Assembly: GCA_048882325.1 (NCBI GenBank)
Contig: JBHLRS010000002.1
Location: 96,001-160,000 of the forward strand
Length of the DNA: 64,000 nt
Origin: Candidatus Thorarchaeota archaeon
Lineage (GTDB): Archaea; Asgardarchaeota; Thorarchaeia; Thorarchaeales; Thorarchaeaceae
Direction: 5' to 3'
Shown: positions 5,721 to 15,712 of the stretch, in pieces
How positions within the stretch are numbered: position 1 is the first letter of the stretch
How the letters are laid out: each line of letters starts with the position of its first letter
Notes under the pieces: model-generated
What the model was told of the DNA's origin: nothing
What the model saw: only the letters and a program-made list of their open reading frames with translations
Databases searched by the model: none
Made by a program: the position numbers and the translations under genes

Positions 5721-6101
5721 ATGAAACTTGAAGGAGTATCAACAGATAACGCACCAAAGGCTATAGGACCGTATTCACAAGGGATCAAAGCGAATGGATT
5801 CGTCTTTTGCTCAGGACAGATTCCATTTAATCCAAACACAGGAGAGCTTGTGACTGGGTCGATCACTGACCAAACAAAGCAATCACTCTCCAATGTGAAA
5901 GGAGTCATAGAAGCAGCTGGATCTTCAATGGAGAAAATTGTGAAGTGTACTGTTTTTCTCAAGAATATGGATGATTTCGCTGAGATGAATGCAGAGTATG
6001 CCAAATGGTTTAGTGACCCACCACCTGCGCGAGCTGCAGTTGAGGTTGCTCGATTACCGAGAGATGTTGGTATTGAGATAGAAGCAATCGCACTTCTCTA
6101 A
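5721..6101 (+). CDS. ridA: RidA/YjgF reactive intermediate deaminase
   Basis: [35 protein letters not shown]. Confidence 0.95.
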
Positions 6102-6310
6102 CATATCCTATAGGGGATTATAACAAGAGCAATGCAACATGGTAGTATCAGCTCTAGCTGATGCCATTCACAGGGGAGTTTATGGATAAACGCCGCTGCG
6201 TCACCACACTTGGTCATTTAGTACATAATGAAAAGTAAATATGCGGTCAGAGCAAGCTTTTTACCTATACATTTTAGCGCAGGTTCTAGAATTACTTGGA
6301 GTACTGACTG

Positions 6311-6940
6311 TTGGATCCAACGAGTCTTGACAGTAGAGAGGTAGAATCCCTTGTGGACCAAGCCTCTTCACTCATTGAAAGACATCAATATGATGAAGCC
6401 ATGAACAAGCTTCGTCGAGGTCTCGCTGTAGACCCAACTAATGTTCGCGCATTAGAAAATCTAGTTATCTGTAATTTGGAACTTGGAAAGCCGAAGATGG
6501 CAATCCATGCATTAAACAGTCTTCTCCAAATAGAACCAACATCATCAGTACGCTGGGGAGACAAAGGGTACATCCATCTTTTACTGAATGAAAACTCAGA
6601 GGGTATCGGTGCACTTAGAGAGAGTCTCAAACTAGAGCCACGTGATGTCCGTAGGTGGGAACTTTTAGCAACAGCACTCATTACTGAAGAGAGATGGGAG
6701 GAGGCTGTGGATGCTTTGGAAAAGTCTCTGAGTCTAGACCCTGCATCTGCCACAACTTGGTATAATCTTGCAGTCTGTTATCTCTACTTTGAAGACTTCG
6801 CGTCAGCCTTGCAGGCTGCTGAATACGCTGTATCACTGGATCCATCTCTTGAAGAGTTTGCTGCAAGTTGGATGGATCTAATCGATGATGATTACCTGAT
6901 AGAAGACTATCCCTCAATTGATGGAATTGCAGGTTCATAG
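6311..6940 (+). CDS. TPR-repeat protein with acidic tail
   Basis: About five TPR units ending in xDP/xEP turns. Confidence 0.85.
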   Translation: MDPTSLDSREVESLVDQASSLIERHQYDEAMNKLRRGLAVDPTNVRALENLVICNLELGKPKMAIHALNSLLQIEPTSSVRWGDKGYIHLLLNENSEGIGALRESLKLEPRDVRRWELLATALITEERWEEAVDALEKSLSLDPASATTWYNLAVCYLYFEDFASALQAAEYAVSLDPSLEEFAASWMDLIDDDYLIEDYPSIDGIAGS

Positions 6941-6942
6941 AA

Positions 6943-8823
6943 CTACTTAATCTTGTCAATTACTGCTTGGATTTCTTTAGATGATTTATTCATCCTAAAT
7001 GACTTCGCTGTTTCGAGAGCTTGTTCGAGAGCAGAGATGATTCGGCTCTTCTCTAGCTCCAATTCAGTTTCATCTTCGATGGTCTTCAGCGCTTCAATCT
7101 TCTTTGGCATCACGCTAAGTAGTCCATCGATTGCAGCCTGAGCCTCCTCTTTTGATGAAAACGATGCATCATGTTCTGCATCATAAGATGTCACTATTCT
7201 ATCTATCTGACTATACAGGCGGCGATACTCACCTAAGGCTCCTGATAGGATCTTCTGGACTTCACCTTCAGGTTCAGCTGCTTCCAAAGCGATTGATAAC
7301 TTCTCCATGGCTCCTTCAAGAAACTGCTTTCTTTCAGGGAGCTTTGTTCGGCGGCGCTCCATCCAACGCCATTCATTGGAAATCTGGCGTGTCAATGCAA
7401 GAGCTTGGTTGATGGTTTCTCTGAATTTGTCAAATTTTGACATAGCTTCATTGAGATCATATTCAAGAGTATCGACAACATGTGTGAGTTGGTAACTAAG
7501 CATGTCACTAGCCTGAGCCTCAGCGAGAACTTTGCTTTCCTTGATTATACGCCCTGCAGAGCTCCATAGACGTTCGACATCTTCAGAATTGCGGTCAGTT
7601 CTCTTCCGCACATCGAGCTCTTCAGATAACTGACGGATCTCATGTCCAATTGCTTGAAGCTCAGCAATCTTTGCCTTGAGCAGAGCTTTGCCCAGTCGAG
7701 TATTGAGCTCATCTGTCAATAGTTGTCTTTCTTCAGGAACCTCAAGTAGTGCATGGGTGTTATCGATTAGAAGCTGCAGAGCATTCTCATACGCGAGTAC
7801 AGCCTCATGGAAGAGTCCTTCCTGATAATGAACATCTGCCTTCTTCTCCAATTCAAGTGCTCCTTCCAATACATCATATGGTGATGTCTTGAGAAGGCTG
7901 TCGGTCAAAACAGGAGGTGTGTCTGTGCAGATATCAAGAGGTTGACCAGACGTAGTCAAGCGAATTATAGTGATTCCATCTTGGGTCGCGACATAGAGAA
8001 GGTCATGGTCTGCTTTGACCCATTCGATTTTCTGTCCATTAAGAGGTATTACACCAACCTCTTCACCCCGTTTCAAATCCCAGATAGTGAGTAAACCGGG
8101 AGACAAAGCAGCCACAAGATAATAGCTACTTGCCCATATTGAGGACACTGGGTTAGAGCTATCTGACTCCAAAGTACGGACCAAGCCCCATTCCACCCGG
8201 TCATAGACTGCAATCTCCCCTGTTGAATTACCTACCAGAACAAACTCAGCGTTTCCAGAGATTATTCCACCTCTTCCTTTCTTGTCCAATCTAGCTAGCT
8301 CCGAAGGTGCAGTATCACGGTCTTTCAACCATACTCGTGGTTCCTCTTTCTTTGCGCTTGTACAAATTATTTTGTCATCCGACCAAAGACTAGTAAGATC
8401 TGATTTATGGAGCTGCCAACTTGAGGTTTCATGAGTGTCTTTTTGAATGGACACAAGTCTACCTTCTCTCGCTCCAACGTAGAAGTAATCACTATGCAGA
8501 GTTGATGTCAGGGCCTGATAACTCAGTTCAAACCACCCAGTCATACCCCAGGTTTCTTTTTTCCAAACATAGATTCTACGCTCACAAGTAGCAAATACCT
8601 GTGTATCATCAACATCAACAATTAGAGGGGGAGTATCAGTTTCGCCTAGTTCTGCAATCAGTTGCCAATCAGTCTTTGACCATACTCGGACTCTTTGATC
8701 GCGACATGCAGCATAGAGAAAGTTCTCATCATATGTGATATCAACTGCAGGAGCCTCTATGATAGTTATAACTTCGTGACTAAGAGGCATGGCATCATTA
8801 GTGCCTAAAGCGCCTTTATCCAT
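6943..8823 (-). CDS. WD40-like beta-propeller + MIT/TPR-like three-helix domain + long helical C-terminus
   Basis: aa ~15-290 hold about 7 blades (VRVW, IYVW, PRVW, IAVYD, LTIWDL). aa ~316-390 read ALELEKKADVHYQEGLFHEAVLAYENALQLL...EERQLL. The rest is amphipathic helices. Start may be ATG 8790. Confidence 0.8.
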   Translation of the reverse strand: MDKGALGTNDAMPLSHEVITIIEAPAVDITYDENFLYAACRDQRVRVWSKTDWQLIAELGETDTPPLIVDVDDTQVFATCERRIYVWKKETWGMTGWFELSYQALTSTLHSDYFYVGAREGRLVSIQKDTHETSSWQLHKSDLTSLWSDDKIICTSAKKEEPRVWLKDRDTAPSELARLDKKGRGGIISGNAEFVLVGNSTGEIAVYDRVEWGLVRTLESDSSNPVSSIWASSYYLVAALSPGLLTIWDLKRGEEVGVIPLNGQKIEWVKADHDLLYVATQDGITIIRLTTSGQPLDICTDTPPVLTDSLLKTSPYDVLEGALELEKKADVHYQEGLFHEAVLAYENALQLLIDNTHALLEVPEERQLLTDELNTRLGKALLKAKIAELQAIGHEIRQLSEELDVRKRTDRNSEDVERLWSSAGRIIKESKVLAEAQASDMLSYQLTHVVDTLEYDLNEAMSKFDKFRETINQALALTRQISNEWRWMERRRTKLPERKQFLEGAMEKLSIALEAAEPEGEVQKILSGALGEYRRLYSQIDRIVTSYDAEHDASFSSKEEAQAAIDGLLSVMPKKIEALKTIEDETELELEKSRIISALEQALETAKSFRMNKSSKEIQAVIDKIK

Positions 8824-9034
8824 AATTTCTCCCCATGAGATTCAGCAGGTTGTATTCAAGGTTTTTGGAGTCCTTAAGGGTGTTTCTTTCACGGTCAGAA
8901 ACGTCTGAAATAGCCGGAAAATGCATTTTAGAAACAAGCAATACATAGTAAAATCGTTGAAAAGGGAGGACCCACACAGAAAGAACTTAAGACATCCACC
9001 ACGAAAATAGCCATACTAGACGGAGGCAGGCATC

Positions 9035-11725
9035 TTGGACACCAGCGGATGGAGACGAGAATTAGACAAACTCGCTGAACTAAAAGGAATCCTAGTTTCA
9101 GTAAATCCTGCGATGGAGGAACAGGCGGACCGTCAGGTGCGTCAGCTATATGACATCTTTGCAAACTTGACTAAGATGGATAATGACCTAGCCACAGCAG
9201 GATTTATGAAAAAGAGAAAAGTTCAAGCTCAGGTCGAAAAGACAGCCAATGATCTTGAAACCGACTTCATGAGAGTGACTCGAGATTTTGCAGAGTATTT
9301 CCGAAAGGAACACAAAGATACTCTAGCAATAGCTCCTAAGATACAAGCTCTCAAACCCAAAGAAGTTCAAGGAATATCCACACTGAATTTTCCGGGTATT
9401 GGAGCAGGAGATCTCAAGGACTTTGAGAAGCTGCACGAATTTGCAAAGGCTTTCTCACAGCTATATCTTGTCATTCATGAAGATGTTGCCAGAGATGTTA
9501 AATCAACCTTAGATGAGAACAAGGCTACCGTTGACACCTACGAGCGTCATATTACGATTGACAAGAGTGAGGTTTCAACTACTGTGTCAAACGATGATGT
9601 CGCGGGGTTGTCGCTTCGAGATCTAATCATTCTGAACGACAAACTTCAGAGTGACAGAGAATTTCTTGATGGAAGGAAAGATGAAGTAACCCAACTACTT
9701 AGTTCATCACTGGTTGGCTCAGTCGAGTCCCTGCAGGCATCTGTAGAGACCACAGCTAGATTGGGTCTTGAATTACCAATGGAACTTTCACAGGAACTTA
9801 GACTGATTGCCAGGGATGCCTCCAAGGCAAACACGCTGACTGCACTTGTTGCCCTTGAGAATCAGCTACACACTGCACAGATCAAGGTAGCAAATGCACT
9901 CCGTGACAAGATTGTTAACATTAAACATGAGGTAACTACAAAGATTGTCGAAGGTGGTATCCCAACTACAGCTGATGTCATCCCAACACCACCAAATGTA
10001 AGTGTTGAAGGAGACCAAATTGCACCGCTCTTGTCTAGCTATCAGCGTATGGTTGAGTGGCAAGGACAAGTGAGGATTGCTCTCAGAGAGCGATTATTCG
10101 AACTCCTGGATGATGTTGAGAAAGCGACAGAAGCTGCAGACGATGCAGGTATTACAGACGTTGTTGCAGTCCGTCAATTCATCGCAGAATCCAAGAAAGC
10201 TCTGAAGACAGAAGATATTGATGGCATGGTGAGAGTCTACCTCCAAGCCAAAGCGATGGATGATGAGTACCGCAAGAATATCACCGAGAGTATTCGGAAC
10301 TACCTCTCTAGATTCAACGAACTTGCAACATCAGCAGATAGAGTTCTGGACCATGCTCAACTGAGTAAAAAAGCTCCGAAGGTCGAAGAGCTTGAAGGTG
10401 GTATTGTCTACCTGCTTGGATCACTACAGAGTCTTCGCGGAGCAGTTGAGAGTGGAGTCGCAACATTTCGTGAGGCTTGTCAACAAGAGATTGACGCAAT
10501 AGTGCATGATCTACAAACTGTCAAGCCAGCATATGCGGAGATATTCATGCCTATAATCGTCGAGCTAGATGAGGGTTCAAACAGAATCCAGGCCATGGAT
10601 GATTTCTCAGAGATTAAGTCTGAAATGCGATCTATCAAGGATGGGATTCTCGTAAAGGCACAAGATGCGCTTGAAAACCTACGATACCGACTTGGTGTAA
10701 AGATCAGACTAGCAGCTGCGAAGCTGATGGGTGCAGGAGTGGAGATTCCGCCAGAAGCACAGGAAGCTATCAGTGAGCTGAACAGCGTAGGTGTAGCAGC
10801 AGACAATGTGTTCAGCTTACCCGCTATCGCACGAAAGATGGTCGAAATCTATGAGAAGAAGATCCAAGACAAAATCATTGAGAAACTGGGTGTCGAGGTT
10901 GATTCACTTATGACTAGTCTTGAGCGGGCTAGTAGTATTGGTGTCAAGCTCGGAAAAGAGCTGAAGATGCTTAGTGGTCTCAAGAACAAACCTCCAGTAG
11001 AGCTTGAAGAGGCAGCTGATGCGTTCGATAAACTTCAGAATCTGACAACATCTCCCAATGTTCACAAGAAAATCAGAGAGCGAGTGGATGAAGCTTACGT
11101 GCAGATCAAAGGAGCACTTTCATTGTTTGAAGAACAGGGTATGTCTGAGTTCGTCGAGCGTCTGAAGGTCCTCATTGATCAAGTACCAGCTAAACTTGAA
11201 ACTGATTCTCCACATGTGAATGAAGCACTTGATGTGTGTCTCACACTAGCAAACATTCAGGAAGAGATGTTGCAGATGATCAAGAGCATGGCTAGTAAGA
11301 GTGGAGAAACTCATGAAGTTGAGCTCAAGAAGAAAAGCCAATACTACTCAACAATCGAGAGAGTAATTGAGAAGCATCCAAAGGATTTCAGCAAGATCGT
11401 GTATGATGTAGCAATGATGAAGGAACTAGAAGAGGGTCTCACTGAAGCTTCCGATTTGGATGTGGCTATTGCTAATTTCCACAAACTTGGAGATATGAGG
11501 AAAGAATGGCTTGACAAAGCAGTTTCAATGGATGATTGGCACAAGTCACTTCGAATGTTCATGACTGGCTTTAGCCCAGCTGACAAGCCAGATGTACGTG
11601 ACAAGTTCATTGATGATGCAATAAGGAAAATAAGAGAGACCTATAGTCGAGAGGACATCAGATCGTACCTCAGCTGGGCTATCAAAGAAAGCGCTCAGGC
11701 TTTGGTCGATTCAAGAACGAAATAG
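9035..11725 (+). CDS. 896-aa all-alpha rod-like protein with ~65-aa helical repeats, unknown function
   Basis: Long ORF with a GGAGG SD before TTG, E/K/L/A-rich heptad character, no TM segment or P-loop seen. Confidence 0.85.
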   Translation: MDTSGWRRELDKLAELKGILVSVNPAMEEQADRQVRQLYDIFANLTKMDNDLATAGFMKKRKVQAQVEKTANDLETDFMRVTRDFAEYFRKEHKDTLAIAPKIQALKPKEVQGISTLNFPGIGAGDLKDFEKLHEFAKAFSQLYLVIHEDVARDVKSTLDENKATVDTYERHITIDKSEVSTTVSNDDVAGLSLRDLIILNDKLQSDREFLDGRKDEVTQLLSSSLVGSVESLQASVETTARLGLELPMELSQELRLIARDASKANTLTALVALENQLHTAQIKVANALRDKIVNIKHEVTTKIVEGGIPTTADVIPTPPNVSVEGDQIAPLLSSYQRMVEWQGQVRIALRERLFELLDDVEKATEAADDAGITDVVAVRQFIAESKKALKTEDIDGMVRVYLQAKAMDDEYRKNITESIRNYLSRFNELATSADRVLDHAQLSKKAPKVEELEGGIVYLLGSLQSLRGAVESGVATFREACQQEIDAIVHDLQTVKPAYAEIFMPIIVELDEGSNRIQAMDDFSEIKSEMRSIKDGILVKAQDALENLRYRLGVKIRLAAAKLMGAGVEIPPEAQEAISELNSVGVAADNVFSLPAIARKMVEIYEKKIQDKIIEKLGVEVDSLMTSLERASSIGVKLGKELKMLSGLKNKPPVELEEAADAFDKLQNLTTSPNVHKKIRERVDEAYVQIKGALSLFEEQGMSEFVERLKVLIDQVPAKLETDSPHVNEALDVCLTLANIQEEMLQMIKSMASKSGETHEVELKKKSQYYSTIERVIEKHPKDFSKIVYDVAMMKELEEGLTEASDLDVAIANFHKLGDMRKEWLDKAVSMDDWHKSLRMFMTGFSPADKPDVRDKFIDDAIRKIRETYSREDIRSYLSWAIKESAQALVDSRTK

Positions 11726-11737
11726 GAGTAACATACA

Positions 11738-13132
11738 ATGTTCGGAAGCAGTCCCCCCAAAGCTCCCATTGAGGATGATACAACAAAAGCAGCAGAAGTC
11801 TTCGCCATCGGAATTGGTGAGTGTGGTTCAAACATAGTCGGTTCTTACCTTCAGACTAGTAGAGATAAGAAACTGCCATCAAGAGTCAGAGGTTACTTGC
11901 TCATTAACACGGATCGAGCAGACCTTACCAAGGTGCGACAGAAATATGGCATTCCAAAAGAACACACTCTCCTCTATGGTGCAAGCGAGATTGGTGTCGG
12001 TGGTCGTTTCATGGATGGGTATAATGCCATCATGGAGTCCAAGGACATCATCTTCGATCAGCTCGGAAACCTAGGATTCGAGGGTGTTTCAGGATTTTGT
12101 ATCTTCACTAGCCTAGGTGGAGGTACTGGTTGTGGAGGAACACCTGCACTCATTGAGCTCTTGAAACAGAGATTCCAAGAAGAAGAAGGTCGTAGGATCT
12201 TCGTTTATGTTGTCGGAATCTTACCATTCGAAGGGCAATCCAGCGAGGCCCTGAACTCAATCTGGGCTGTTTCAAAACTACTCAGAGCTCAGCTCCAAGA
12301 ACGAGGAGCAGACCTTACTATTCTTCTCTCAAACAGGACAATGCTCAAGAGAATACTTCAATGGCGGAGAGGGGATACTGTAGACTATCTCCAGAGGGAG
12401 CTTGAGGTCGACATAGCTGACATAGACTCAATTGAAACAATGGTTCCATCAACACTTGAGGAAAGTTCAGCAGCAGATACTAGGACCGAACAAGCTTTCG
12501 TTGAACTGGTCAATCCGCTGGCACTGGATGTTGTGGAAGCAATGCTCTCACCCGGTGTATGGGAAAAATCAAAGGATGTCTTTCCAACAACTGACCTCGC
12601 AGACTACGCTAGAAAACTGGATCCCGTAGTAGTTCCAGCCCTCTATACGGATATTGGCTTGATTCCTGATGCAGGAAGTATGCCTAAACAGCTAAGGACA
12701 ATGATTGACTACGCTGTGAAGGAGTGCTCCTATGCTGATGTTGGTGAAGAGCCTAATGCTGAGAGTGTTTATTATGTGCTCTCTGGGCCAAGACATGTAG
12801 CTAAAGCAGAATACGGTATGCACGTCAAGGAATCATTAGACAAGTTCATTGCGCCAGGTGCAGCGATTACACCATGCTATGTGCAATATCATGATCAAGA
12901 TGACTCGAATACAAACCTACTCCTTCTACTCGGTTTACCAAAGATTCCAGAACTTGTGCAAATCATTAACGAAGCTACTCAGCTTGTTAACTTGCACAGT
13001 GGTGCCTCGCCTTTGAAGCAGGGATGGTTCATGAGATCGAAGGGTACTACCCGGAAGGAACTGGTCGATGCAATCAACGACTTTCGAGAGTTGTTCAGCT
13101 ATTACATGACGCCTGGTGACACAATGGAATAG
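11738..13132 (+). CDS. Divergent tubulin/FtsZ-superfamily GTPase (CetZ/tubulin-like, not canonical FtsZ)
   Basis: T1 GIGECGSNI, T2 INTD, T3 GVGG, T4 GFCIFTSLGGGTGCGG, T5 ILPFEG, T6 LLSN, T7 TTDLADY. AGGAG SD upstream. Confidence 0.92.
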   Translation: MFGSSPPKAPIEDDTTKAAEVFAIGIGECGSNIVGSYLQTSRDKKLPSRVRGYLLINTDRADLTKVRQKYGIPKEHTLLYGASEIGVGGRFMDGYNAIMESKDIIFDQLGNLGFEGVSGFCIFTSLGGGTGCGGTPALIELLKQRFQEEEGRRIFVYVVGILPFEGQSSEALNSIWAVSKLLRAQLQERGADLTILLSNRTMLKRILQWRRGDTVDYLQRELEVDIADIDSIETMVPSTLEESSAADTRTEQAFVELVNPLALDVVEAMLSPGVWEKSKDVFPTTDLADYARKLDPVVVPALYTDIGLIPDAGSMPKQLRTMIDYAVKECSYADVGEEPNAESVYYVLSGPRHVAKAEYGMHVKESLDKFIAPGAAITPCYVQYHDQDDSNTNLLLLLGLPKIPELVQIINEATQLVNLHSGASPLKQGWFMRSKGTTRKELVDAINDFRELFSYYMTPGDTME

Positions 13133-13148
13133 AATCGGTGGTGACAGA

Positions 13149-14216
13149 TTGTCGGACTCCTCATCATTTCACTACGAAGACCTCATTGATAGACTTCTTC
13201 TTATAGTCACACTGAATTCAACTTTAATCCATTTCCTCCTGAGCTCACAGGTGGAGGAATCAATTGATCCAGACAGAGTGGATTCGCTCACTCAAGGTCT
13301 ACTTAGAACGCGAAAATGGATGGAAGAAGCCACCACGATGAAGGGCATTCCGCCTTCCACTCAGAATATCATGAGTCTCATTGTGAAGCGTCTTTCGCAG
13401 GTTGAGAGTCTTCTACCCAAACTATCAAACAAAGCAAAACAAATCGAATCCAGATCAGCAGCGCAGGAGATTCTTTCCTTGCTTGATGGGAAAGAAGCCC
13501 CATCAGGAACTCCAGCCCCCTCAGGAACAGCTGCACAGACCACTGAAACGGATCTAGTTCCTCTAGTTGGTGGCGAACAACCCAAATCCGTGGAACCTTA
13601 TCGAAAAGTCGATGTTGAAGATGACCAGTTTGGTCTGATTGGTCAAAGTCAGCGATTGATCCAACAATACTCAAAGAGATGTCATATCCTACTTCCGACC
13701 TTTTGGCTGGAGTCTTTACGAGAAATCCATCGCTATAGATCGGAATCACCCTACCTCGGAGATGTGATTGAACTTCCAGCACGTATCTTGGTCAAGATTG
13801 CCAAAGGATTACTGACAGAGGCCCCTGGCGCTCGTCTCCTTCAGGACCTCATGAAGTCTCGCCAACAAGAGAACTACTTGAATGGGTCAGAGATGGAGAG
13901 AATCGAACGGGCAGTTGCAAAGTATTTCCAGGGTGTCGAGTCCGTACTTAAGGAACAGGAGGTAAATGTCCAGGACAAGATTCTAGAGGCACAAACAGCC
14001 TTTGATGGGTTCGGTTGGGGTGGCCCAGAGTTGGAGAAACGCATCATCAAGAGGTTGAATCAGCAGGTGGAGGAAGCTATTCAGAATGCTGAATCCGGCA
14101 CCGACCCGGCACGTCAGGTAATTCATGCTGAGATAGCCAAGTTGCTGTGCAAGCTGCAACATGCTCTCCTGGCTGAACCAAGACCTAGAGAAATTCTCGC
14201 ACAAATGAAACCTTGA
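13149..14216 (+). CDS. Hypothetical alpha-helical protein, third gene of the tubulin-like operon
   Basis: The ORF track starts at 13116. TTG 13149 follows a GGTGGTGA SD 16 nt after the GTPase stop. Two helical regions are joined by a P/S/G/T linker (APSGTPAPSGT). Confidence 0.75.
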   Translation: MSDSSSFHYEDLIDRLLLIVTLNSTLIHFLLSSQVEESIDPDRVDSLTQGLLRTRKWMEEATTMKGIPPSTQNIMSLIVKRLSQVESLLPKLSNKAKQIESRSAAQEILSLLDGKEAPSGTPAPSGTAAQTTETDLVPLVGGEQPKSVEPYRKVDVEDDQFGLIGQSQRLIQQYSKRCHILLPTFWLESLREIHRYRSESPYLGDVIELPARILVKIAKGLLTEAPGARLLQDLMKSRQQENYLNGSEMERIERAVAKYFQGVESVLKEQEVNVQDKILEAQTAFDGFGWGGPELEKRIIKRLNQQVEEAIQNAESGTDPARQVIHAEIAKLLCKLQHALLAEPRPREILAQMKP

Positions 14217-14305
14217 ATCTGTCGAGGTGTGTATAGAAGCATTCGCATGCATAGCCCATATAAGGGATGTTTACAACCCACATCAAAGACACACGAGGGT
14301 GACAG

Positions 14306-15712
14306 ATGACCGGTCTCAAGACTATGTTAAATCCCAAGGTGACTGCTGTGGTTGGTGTGTCCACAACCAATCCCTTCAGTCCTGGAAATGTGATCTTCAG
14401 AAAACTGGCCTTTGAGAATGGACTCCCCACACATCCTGTCAACCCAAAGGGAGGTACAGTTGAAGGAGTCCATGTCTATAGATCAATCACTGAAGCTCCT
14501 GATGATATCGAACTTGCTGTGATTTCAGTTCCAGCTAGATATGTCCCCGGAGTATTAACAGAATGTGGAGAGAAGAAGATTCGGTCGGTCATTGTTGTAT
14601 CAGGTGGGTTTAGTGAGGTTGGAGAATCAGGAGCTAGTCTTCAGACTGAGATTGTCGAGATAGCTAATAGATACAAGATATCGATGGTAGGTCCAAACTG
14701 CATTGGTGTGTTTGTTCCTGATGTTCTTGATACTTTCTTTCTACCCTCAGAACGTGTAGCTCGTCCTAGAAAGGGAAGTGTTGCAATAATTTCGCAAAGT
14801 GGAGGTTGGTTGATTGAGAGGCTGGAAGAATTCGCAGCAAGAGATGTAGGTATAGCCGCTGCGATATCAATAGGGAACTCTGCTCAGACTAAGGTCACAG
14901 ACTTCATCAATCTATTTGGTAAGGATGACTGTGTTCATGTGATTTTGGCCTATATTGAGGGATTTGGCAATGGTGAAGGGAGAACATTTGTCGAAGCATG
15001 CGAAAAAATTGTTCCGAAGAAGCCAGTTATTGTTTTGAAAGGAGGCGAGTCCGAAGCTGGTCATCGTGCAACTCAGAGTCATACTTCGTCTCTTGCTGGA
15101 GATAATGCTATCACAAATGCCGCATTCAATCAATTTGGTGTGATCCACGCTGTGGATGAAGATGAGGTAATGGCATTTTCTAAAGTTTTCTCGTTCAAGC
15201 CGAAACATATGTCAGGCCCAAGAATAGGGACCTTAACTGTAAGTGGTGGACATGGAGTGATAGCTAGTGATGAAGCATCACATTATGGCCTCAAAATGCC
15301 TCCATTCAGCAAGGAGCAACAAGAGCTAATGCGAGAGGTCATGACTCCAGCCTATCAAGGAATTGCATCGTTCCGCAATCCCTGTGACCTGACAGGTAGT
15401 GCATCGGATATAGATTATGAACAGGTCCTCGACAAAATGCTAGAATTCGAGACTATTGATGCTGCACTTCTTCTGTTGCTACCTTATGCACCAGGAATCT
15501 CTCTTCAAATCGGAGCGAGAGTTGCCAATGTTGCAAAACGTCACACGAAGACTGTCGTTTCCTATGTACCAGACCTCGACAAGTATGAAGTAATAATTCG
15601 AGGATTCGAGCTGAATGGTATTCCAGTAGGTGACACTATAGAAGAGGCTGTTCAAATGCTCAATGGAATCAGAATTCGGTCCAAGTATCTACAGCGCATA
15701 GGAAAGATCTAG
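14306..15712 (+). CDS. acdA: ADP-forming acyl-CoA synthetase alpha subunit
   Basis: CoA-binding domain (PVNPK, SGGFSE, GPNCIG), SQSGG, phospho-His SHTSSLAG, NPCDLTG. Confidence 0.85.
   Translation: MTGLKTMLNPKVTAVVGVSTTNPFSPGNVIFRKLAFENGLPTHPVNPKGGTVEGVHVYRSITEAPDDIELAVISVPARYVPGVLTECGEKKIRSVIVVSGGFSEVGESGASLQTEIVEIANRYKISMVGPNCIGVFVPDVLDTFFLPSERVARPRKGSVAIISQSGGWLIERLEEFAARDVGIAAAISIGNSAQTKVTDFINLFGKDDCVHVILAYIEGFGNGEGRTFVEACEKIVPKKPVIVLKGGESEAGHRATQSHTSSLAGDNAITNAAFNQFGVIHAVDEDEVMAFSKVFSFKPKHMSGPRIGTLTVSGGHGVIASDEASHYGLKMPPFSKEQQELMREVMTPAYQGIASFRNPCDLTGSASDIDYEQVLDKMLEFETIDAALLLLLPYAPGISLQIGARVANVAKRHTKTVVSYVPDLDKYEVIIRGFELNGIPVGDTIEEAVQMLNGIRIRSKYLQRIGKI

Follow-up and report, generated by a model that had tools for sequence, protein, structure and literature searches.

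The window, i.e., the whole 64,000-nucleotide stretch analysed here (positions 96,001 to 160,000 of contig JBHLRS010000002.1 of a Candidatus Thorarchaeota archaeon), contains on its + strand a run of three genes that encode a long helical protein (the rod), a GTPase of the tubulin/FtsZ superfamily and a second helical protein (the partner). This trio is probably a single transcriptional unit. An original prediction, made from the letters alone, had seen in these genes part of a candidate undescribed four-gene cytoskeletal system, the fourth gene being a divergent neighbour encoding a WD40 protein. The three genes are the following (all positions are those of the window):

9035-11725, + strand, rod gene, 896 amino acids (aa), TTG start, first gene of the operon (open reading frame (ORF) listing)
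11738-13132, + strand, GTPase gene, 464 aa (ORF listing)
13149-14216, + strand, helical partner gene, about 355 aa from TTG 13149 (366 aa from GTG 13116) (ORF and ortholog alignment)

The rod TTG start has GGAGG 7 nucleotides (nt) on its 5' side. The TAG stop of the rod occupies 11723-11725 and the GTPase ATG follows after 12 nt at 11738, with GGAG in between. The GTPase stop codon occupies 13130-13132 and is followed after 16 nt by an in-frame TTG at 13149, preceded by GGTGGTGA. This TTG fits the N-termini of the partner orthologs (alignment A1) better than GTG 13116, which overlaps the GTPase gene. The ORFs and the sequence thus agree with the predicted tight + strand trio (gaps of 12 and about 16 nt, each gene with a Shine-Dalgarno sequence). 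Such gaps, together with the ribosome-binding sites, suggest that the three genes are co-translated.

The gene distribution was obtained from three scans of 400 Asgard genomes, the query for the rod being its C-terminal 197 aa. The counts are given below for the whole set and by family (f2, f6 and f8 comprise one genome each):

GTPase, 126/400: f1 75/85; f2, f6 and f8 1/1 each; f12 15/19; f15 4/4; f18 21/22; f19 2/2; f32 5/5
Rod (C-terminal 197 aa), 125/400: f1 73/85; f2, f6 and f8 1/1 each; f12 16/19; f15 4/4; f18 21/22; f19 2/2; f32 5/5
Partner, 123/400: f1 73/85; f2, f6 and f8 1/1 each; f12 16/19; f15 4/4; f18 20/22; f19 1/2; f32 5/5

None of the three genes has a match in any other family searched (e.g., f9 0/135, f5 0/31). 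The small differences between the three tallies are consistent with incomplete assemblies. Synteny was analysed in 27 fetched loci by tblastn and ORF calling. The order rod-GTPase-partner, with close spacing, is found in 19/19 primary-copy loci fetched, from nine families, i.e., all those having the GTPase. The rod lies directly 5' of the GTPase in 21/21 loci when paralogous loci are included. When the neighbouring ORFs of the 21 loci are clustered, only rod, GTPase and partner are common to more than two families. Across the nine families identity ranges from 74% down to 43% for the GTPase and goes down to about 20% for the rod. As judged from genome comparison, this shared distribution and gene order show rod, GTPase and partner to be a single evolutionary unit, and the trio very probably works as one functional unit. 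It must be noticed that in one genome, G093, an ORF of 1202 aa (L059:10855-14463, - strand) lies between rod and GTPase; no Pfam family is found in it and hhalign shows no likeness to the rod.

Eight f18 genomes contain two GTPase copies and the same eight contain two rod copies. The second rod is directly 5' of the second GTPase, in the two paralog loci that were fetched (L045:6060-10831 and L043:9420-14180, both from f18) and, judging by coordinates, in the remaining genomes. The second GTPase has about 50% identity and the rod homolog of the paralog loci has 1140 aa (hhalign E = 2.4e-44 for L045). In a quick maximum-likelihood tree the second GTPase nests within the f18/f19 clade; this nesting and the matching rod copies indicate that rod and GTPase were duplicated together. 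The partner is single-copy in each complete genome, two-GTPase genomes included. A gene of 311 aa located 5' of the paralogous rod was considered and rejected, being not partner-like. On the other side of the L045 pair, a - strand gene (L045:10879-13101), convergent to the paralogous GTPase gene, encodes a 740-aa protein with an N-terminal small GTPase of the Gtr1/RagA type (PF04670, E = 8e-30). A similar ORF of 739 aa occupies the matching position in L043.

The assignment of the GTPase to the tubulin/FtsZ family, already made in the original prediction, is confirmed by a match to PF00091 (E = 1.1e-19, 71.9 bits for a cut-off of 33, residues 20-204). The genome carries two canonical FtsZ genes elsewhere, which makes this the third of its tubulin-family genes. 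The FtsZ model TIGR00065 gives 32.1 bits, below its cut-off of 295.2. No match to FtsZ_C, CetZ_C (PF21011) or Tubulin_C (PF03953) is found in the GTPase, and none to CetZ_C at E<=0.1; six CetZ sequences run as a control against the same library match CetZ_C with E from 7.5e-09 to 1.8e-54, five of them at 1e-26 or better. The best solved relatives are CetZ proteins (4b46, phmmer E = 1.7e-10, N-terminal domain only). By profile comparison (hhalign), the family is closest to CetZ_C-bearing sequences (E = 1.5e-23, 170 columns, residues 20-205 only), and then to Asgard tubulins (E = 8.7e-10, 136 columns).

Three motifs were compared among 21 sequences with identities down to 43%: (i) in the T1 loop, GxGECGxN, the residues G25, G27, E28, G30 and N32 are invariant; (ii) the signature G127-G133 reads GGGTGCG, i.e., with Cys at the S/T position of GGGTG[ST]G, and is invariant in 21/21 sequences; (iii) in the T7 motif, PTTDxADY, placed in the fold from sequence alone, D286 and D289 are invariant in 21/21 sequences and the usual Asn is lacking. 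By its motifs, the GTPase retains all the classes of residues required to bind GTP and to hydrolyse it across a longitudinal contact between subunits. This set is the one expected for a GTPase that would hydrolyse across a polymer contact, and the GTPase probably forms filaments.

The missing Asn of T7, and a C-terminal half with no detectable similarity to the C-domains of tubulin, FtsZ or CetZ, could also be those of a non-polymerising switch or assembly factor, of which the two helical proteins would be effector or substrate. However, neither acidic residue of T7 varies, and a contact between subunits is the only place where they matter. Moreover, the characterised members of the tubulin/FtsZ superfamily polymerise, to our knowledge. 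A non-polymerising GTPase is thus quite unlikely.

The family of the GTPase has already been named. Residues 228-464 are near-identical to OLS30664.1 (Thorarchaeales AB-25), listed in the supplementary C-terminal alignment of Asg.Tub, the CetZ-like group of Asgardarchaeota named by Santana-Molina, del Saz-Navarro and Devos (2023, PMC9871819). By this near-identity the GTPase of the window is a member of the Asg.Tub family. The same authors noted that the neighbours of Asg.Tub are unknown genes, mostly with coiled-coil regions, and that its placement between CetZ and tubulins is unstable in their trees. The system is thus not undescribed in the sense first proposed, since both the family and its coiled-coil neighbours had been remarked. 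That work is limited to phylogeny: the trio is not defined there, nor are its co-inheritance, the duplication of the rod together with the GTPase, or the architecture of the two partner proteins. As far as found, the trio as a co-inherited module with a joint duplication does not appear in the literature beyond the remark on coiled-coil neighbours. The name Asg.Tub was met in that paper only, and no experimental work on the family was found. [quoted passage not shown]

In the quick tree Asg.Tub is monophyletic (SH-aLRT, the Shimodaira-Hasegawa-like approximate likelihood-ratio test, 97), gathers Thor and Heimdall lineages and is separate from the clade bearing CetZ_C. It stands closer to tubulins and to long-branch unknown sequences than to CetZ (SH-aLRT 89), a deep placement that is weakly supported and carries a long-branch warning. 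The deep affinity is conflicting: the quick tree points to the tubulin side whereas profile similarity points to CetZ. Among 1.84 billion representative proteins, three full-length clusters are better than 1e-28 and the remaining matches cover residues 20-200 only. The named homologs belong to Thor-, Hod-/Heimdall-, Hermod- and Baldrarchaeia, and almost every one bears the annotation "hypothetical". A distant relative, P0130 (33% identity; L061:8001-10149, Logan contig SRR7811641_30), is sister to the Asg.Tub clade in the quick tree. P0130 is encoded downstream of an SMC-ScpA cluster and of dihydroorotate dehydrogenase genes, is followed by an overlapping unknown gene of 262 aa, and has no rod. 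This 262-aa gene was rejected as a homolog of the partner (resemblance over 30 residues only, hhalign probability 10%).

The rod, first described as a helical-repeat protein of 896 aa, is indeed all-helical and internally repeated. Its AlphaFold2 model consists only of helices, many of them about 40 residues long, with a predicted local distance difference test score (pLDDT) of 86.8 and a predicted template modelling score (pTM) of 0.40, as expected for an elongated protein. When the rod is compared with itself by hhalign, off-diagonal matches appear at offsets close to 160, 200-270 and 320-330 aa (E from 3.5e-11 to 1.6e-06, values possibly inflated by the helical composition). This suggests roughly five or six modules of about 160 aa each. 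The orthologs range from 814 to 1185 aa, and the f18 form has a block of about 240 aa inserted in the middle of the protein, an insertion consistent with the addition of modules. No Pfam or NCBIfam family matches the rod at cut-off and Foldseek finds no match to its model in PDB. The VIA wide search returns generic helical bundles only (Z up to 12, below the level that is meaningful for helical proteins), and the language-model look-alikes are limited to the cluster of the rod itself.

The partner is also helical as predicted, yet it is not the orphan first supposed, having 214 homologs, all unnamed. Its AlphaFold2 model (pLDDT 82 overall, above 90 for residues 160-366) shows a bundle of three helices (residues 20-123), then a disordered linker (129-157) and finally an all-helical C-terminal domain (about 160-366). 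The invariant residues (D170, P194, P237, L241, G302, E307, R309 and K365; alignment A1) are concentrated in that C-terminal domain. The search for relatives gave the following: (i) no Pfam or NCBIfam family at cut-off; (ii) no Foldseek match in PDB at E<=0.001; (iii) in the VIA wide search, which barely probed the C-terminal domain, generic three-helix bundles for residues 13-123 only (Z about 9); (iv) template modelling (TM) scores below 0.35 in the ESM Atlas shape search; (v) nothing significant when the profile was compared with PDB sequences; (vi) no language-model look-alike of the C-terminal domain. The predicted complex of GTPase and partner (alignments A3 and A1) scores 0.07 for a mark of 0.32, which speaks neither for nor against binding.

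The trio faces the WD40 gene across a divergent intergenic region:

8824-9034, no strand, divergent intergenic region, 211 bp (sequence read)
6943-8823, - strand, WD40 plus helical gene, 626 aa (ORF listing)

The intergenic length is close to the 210 bp or so announced beforehand. The operon and the WD40 gene are presumed to have their promoters in this region. A stretch CACACAGAAAG..CTTAAGA (about 8973-8997, i.e., some 40-60 nt 5' of the rod start) is found at the same position in two other Thorarchaeaceae genomes (G015 and G355) and may be a promoter or leader element. The upstream regions are too divergent in sequence for a promoter to be defined by their alignment. The flanking genes are metabolic according to Pfam and NCBIfam scans: carbamate kinase, RidA, a TPR protein, acetyl-CoA synthetase alpha and type-2 isopentenyl diphosphate (IPP) isomerase (IDI2). 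The TPR gene (6311-6940, + strand, 209 aa) ends 3 nt short of the stop of the convergent WD40 gene. Throughout Thorarchaeaceae it adjoins the WD40 gene or, in genomes lacking the latter, the rod gene.

Systems of the TubZRC type likewise consist of a small operon with a tubulin-like GTPase and accessory proteins, and the trio could by this resemblance be a TubZ-like DNA-segregation cassette of a plasmid, a virus or an integrated element. However, the locus is chromosomal and its housekeeping flanks are syntenic across Thorarchaeaceae. No direct, inverted or tandem repeat is found in 8700-9100 and the single tandem repeat of 6000-15000 is trivial, so that centromere-like repeats are lacking in and near the operon. 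No DNA-binding Pfam family is detected in rod or partner, and the distribution of the genes tracks host families. Given the chromosomal syntenic context and the lack of repeats, a segregation cassette is very improbable.

The WD40 protein does contain a propeller, as had been read from the sequence: a profile of nine orthologs matches solved propellers (E = 2.7e-28, 4 stretches) and several Pfam propeller families match below threshold. Its C-terminal part of about 310 aa is helical, according to the earlier reading and to weak TPR and MIT matches. The "MIT-like" label does not hold as well: PF04212 reaches only E = 0.07 and 13.7 bits for a cut-off of 30, on residues 319-375 and only if the scan is restricted to residues 300-420, and TPR_2 scores equally well over the same residues.

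In a four-gene system this WD40-helical protein would be a dedicated regulator of the filament, with a severing or ESCRT-like function, comparable to what is found at the haloarchaeal Halo_adaptin loci. In favour of it, the gene is divergent from the rod across 211 bp, is present in 68/86 Thorarchaeaceae genomes (14/16 genera) and adjoins the rod in every same-contig case compared by eye. The weak MIT match and the published precedent of propeller proteins linked with a CetZ-like gene (PMC10936438) point in the same direction. However, searches for the WD40 gene give no match in g23 (0/4), in g28 (0/3) or in genomes G001 and G012, all of which keep the trio (the GTPase is present in 3/4 of g23, in 3/3 of g28, and in G001 and G012), nor do they give one in four trio-carrying genomes of other families. 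In Thorarchaeaceae the entire neighbourhood is syntenic and the metabolic genes (carbamate kinase, RidA, TPR, acetyl-CoA synthetase, IDI2) as much as the others, so the adjacency of the WD40 gene there says little. Moreover, the WD40 protein has no homology to rod or partner by profile comparison, and no Vps4 or ESCRT-III gene is found at the locus by Pfam and NCBIfam scans. A four-gene system is thus unlikely. The synteny check once proposed for the four genes gives a divided answer: rod, GTPase and partner are kept in nine families, whereas the WD40 gene was found in Thorarchaeaceae only and in none of the four genomes of other families compared. The latter is a neighbour specific to Thorarchaeaceae, at most accessory and outside the module. 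The analogy with katanin, spastin and ESCRT regulators was built on this gene and falls with it: the MIT match is below threshold and the gene is not co-inherited with the trio, so such a eukaryote-like link does not hold. In one genome (G366:C40:6274-8158) the WD40 ortholog is split into two adjacent ORFs (query 1-291 and 292-625) and the neighbouring trio is intact.

The module comprises three genes and not four, and it probably corresponds to a filament with two dedicated partners; more precisely, the trio is likely to be the operon of a dedicated cytoplasmic filament system of Asgard archaea. In such a system, Asg.Tub would bind GTP and polymerise head to tail; in the resulting protofilaments each GTPase site would be completed by the T7 aspartates of the adjoining subunit, as happens in FtsZ and CetZ. 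The rod, built of roughly five to seven helical modules of about 160 aa (more or fewer according to the lineage), would attach along the filaments or between them and serve as scaffold, spacer or cross-linker. The partner, made of a bundle, a flexible linker and a conserved globular domain, would be an adaptor or a regulator acting in nucleation, capping or coupling to another structure. Since the genome has two canonical FtsZ genes and no characterised relative is nearer than CetZ, the role would be sought in cell shape or protrusion architecture rather than in division. A role in shape or protrusions, drawn by analogy, is nevertheless tentative.

Several points weigh against this filament system. 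(i) The C-terminal half of the GTPase aligns with neither CetZ nor tubulin in profile comparison, the similarity being limited to residues 20-205, and a tubulin-type activation domain is deduced solely from the T7-like motif. (ii) Polymerisation and GTP hydrolysis by Asg.Tub, as well as binding among the trio proteins, are predictions. (iii) No partner gene lies beside the paralogous rod-GTPase pair in the two fetched loci, so that the partner may be dispensable or shared. (iv) No membrane anchor or cargo link is seen in the trio. On this last point, the Kyte-Doolittle mean over 19-residue windows never exceeds 1.6 in rod, GTPase, partner or WD40 protein. As the trio has no transmembrane segment, the assembly would be soluble or would contact the membrane through something else.

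The trio brings together a tubulin-superfamily GTPase and two co-inherited partners of no known family in about a third of Asgard genomes. What is already known is the GTPase family, by name and phylogeny only. What is new here includes the exclusion of the WD40/MIT gene from the module and the absence of overlap, among the 400 genomes, between the families that have Asg.Tub (f1, f2, f6, f8, f12, f15, f18, f19 and f32) and those that have true tubulins. The latter, recognised by PF03953, are rare (8/400 genomes, families f3, f14, f26 and f31) and Asg.Tub occurs in families where they were not found; Tubulin_C has no match in the genome of the window itself. A wider reading, speculative and rather doubtful, would make the trio a third cytoskeleton specific to Asgard archaea: Asg.Tub filaments would be decorated or bundled by a ruler-like modular rod, with the partner controlling them. 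In the Thor, Hod/Heimdall-like, Baldr and other lineages in which true tubulin was not found, the trio would stand in for tubulin and its associated proteins, e.g., in protrusions or internal organisation. The proteins of the trio are predicted to be soluble and are of moderate size; polymerisation, partner binding and filament structure are thus directly testable in vitro.

The comparison with known systems leads to the following likenesses and differences. CetZ (solved structures 4b46, 4b45 and 3zid) gives the best sequence and profile match to the N-terminal GTPase domain of Asg.Tub, shares with it a T7 motif with two acidic residues, and is likewise an extra paralog alongside FtsZ1/FtsZ2. 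On the contrary, Asg.Tub has no CetZ_C match and is outside the CetZ clade in the quick tree, and we know of no CetZ genes with operon partners such as the rod and the partner. OdinTubulin, AtubA/B and the eukaryotic tubulins belong to the same superfamily and are, for the Asgard ones, paralogs additional to FtsZ; the T1 GxGECG of Asg.Tub resembles the GQxG of tubulin. They differ by Tubulin_C, which Asg.Tub lacks, and by a profile match weaker than that of CetZ.

In BtubA/B-BtubC and TubZ-TubR-TubY, the operon of a filament-forming GTPase also encodes accessory proteins, small or helical, by which the filament is stabilised or coupled. The trio has the same layout, its filament being proposed from sequence, and differs in that its partners are unrelated in sequence and that it has no TPR, no DNA-binding module and no centromere repeat. 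In the Halo_adaptin loci (Makarova et al. 2024, PMC10936438), a non-canonical CetZ-like GTPase adjoins WD40/PQQ-propeller proteins, i.e., a CetZ-like GTPase lies near a propeller gene, as in the window. However, those loci are centred on a Vps4-like ATPase, an ESCRT-III-like protein and IG-domain 'adaptin-like' proteins, all of them missing from the present locus, and the propeller gene of the window is not co-inherited with the GTPase.

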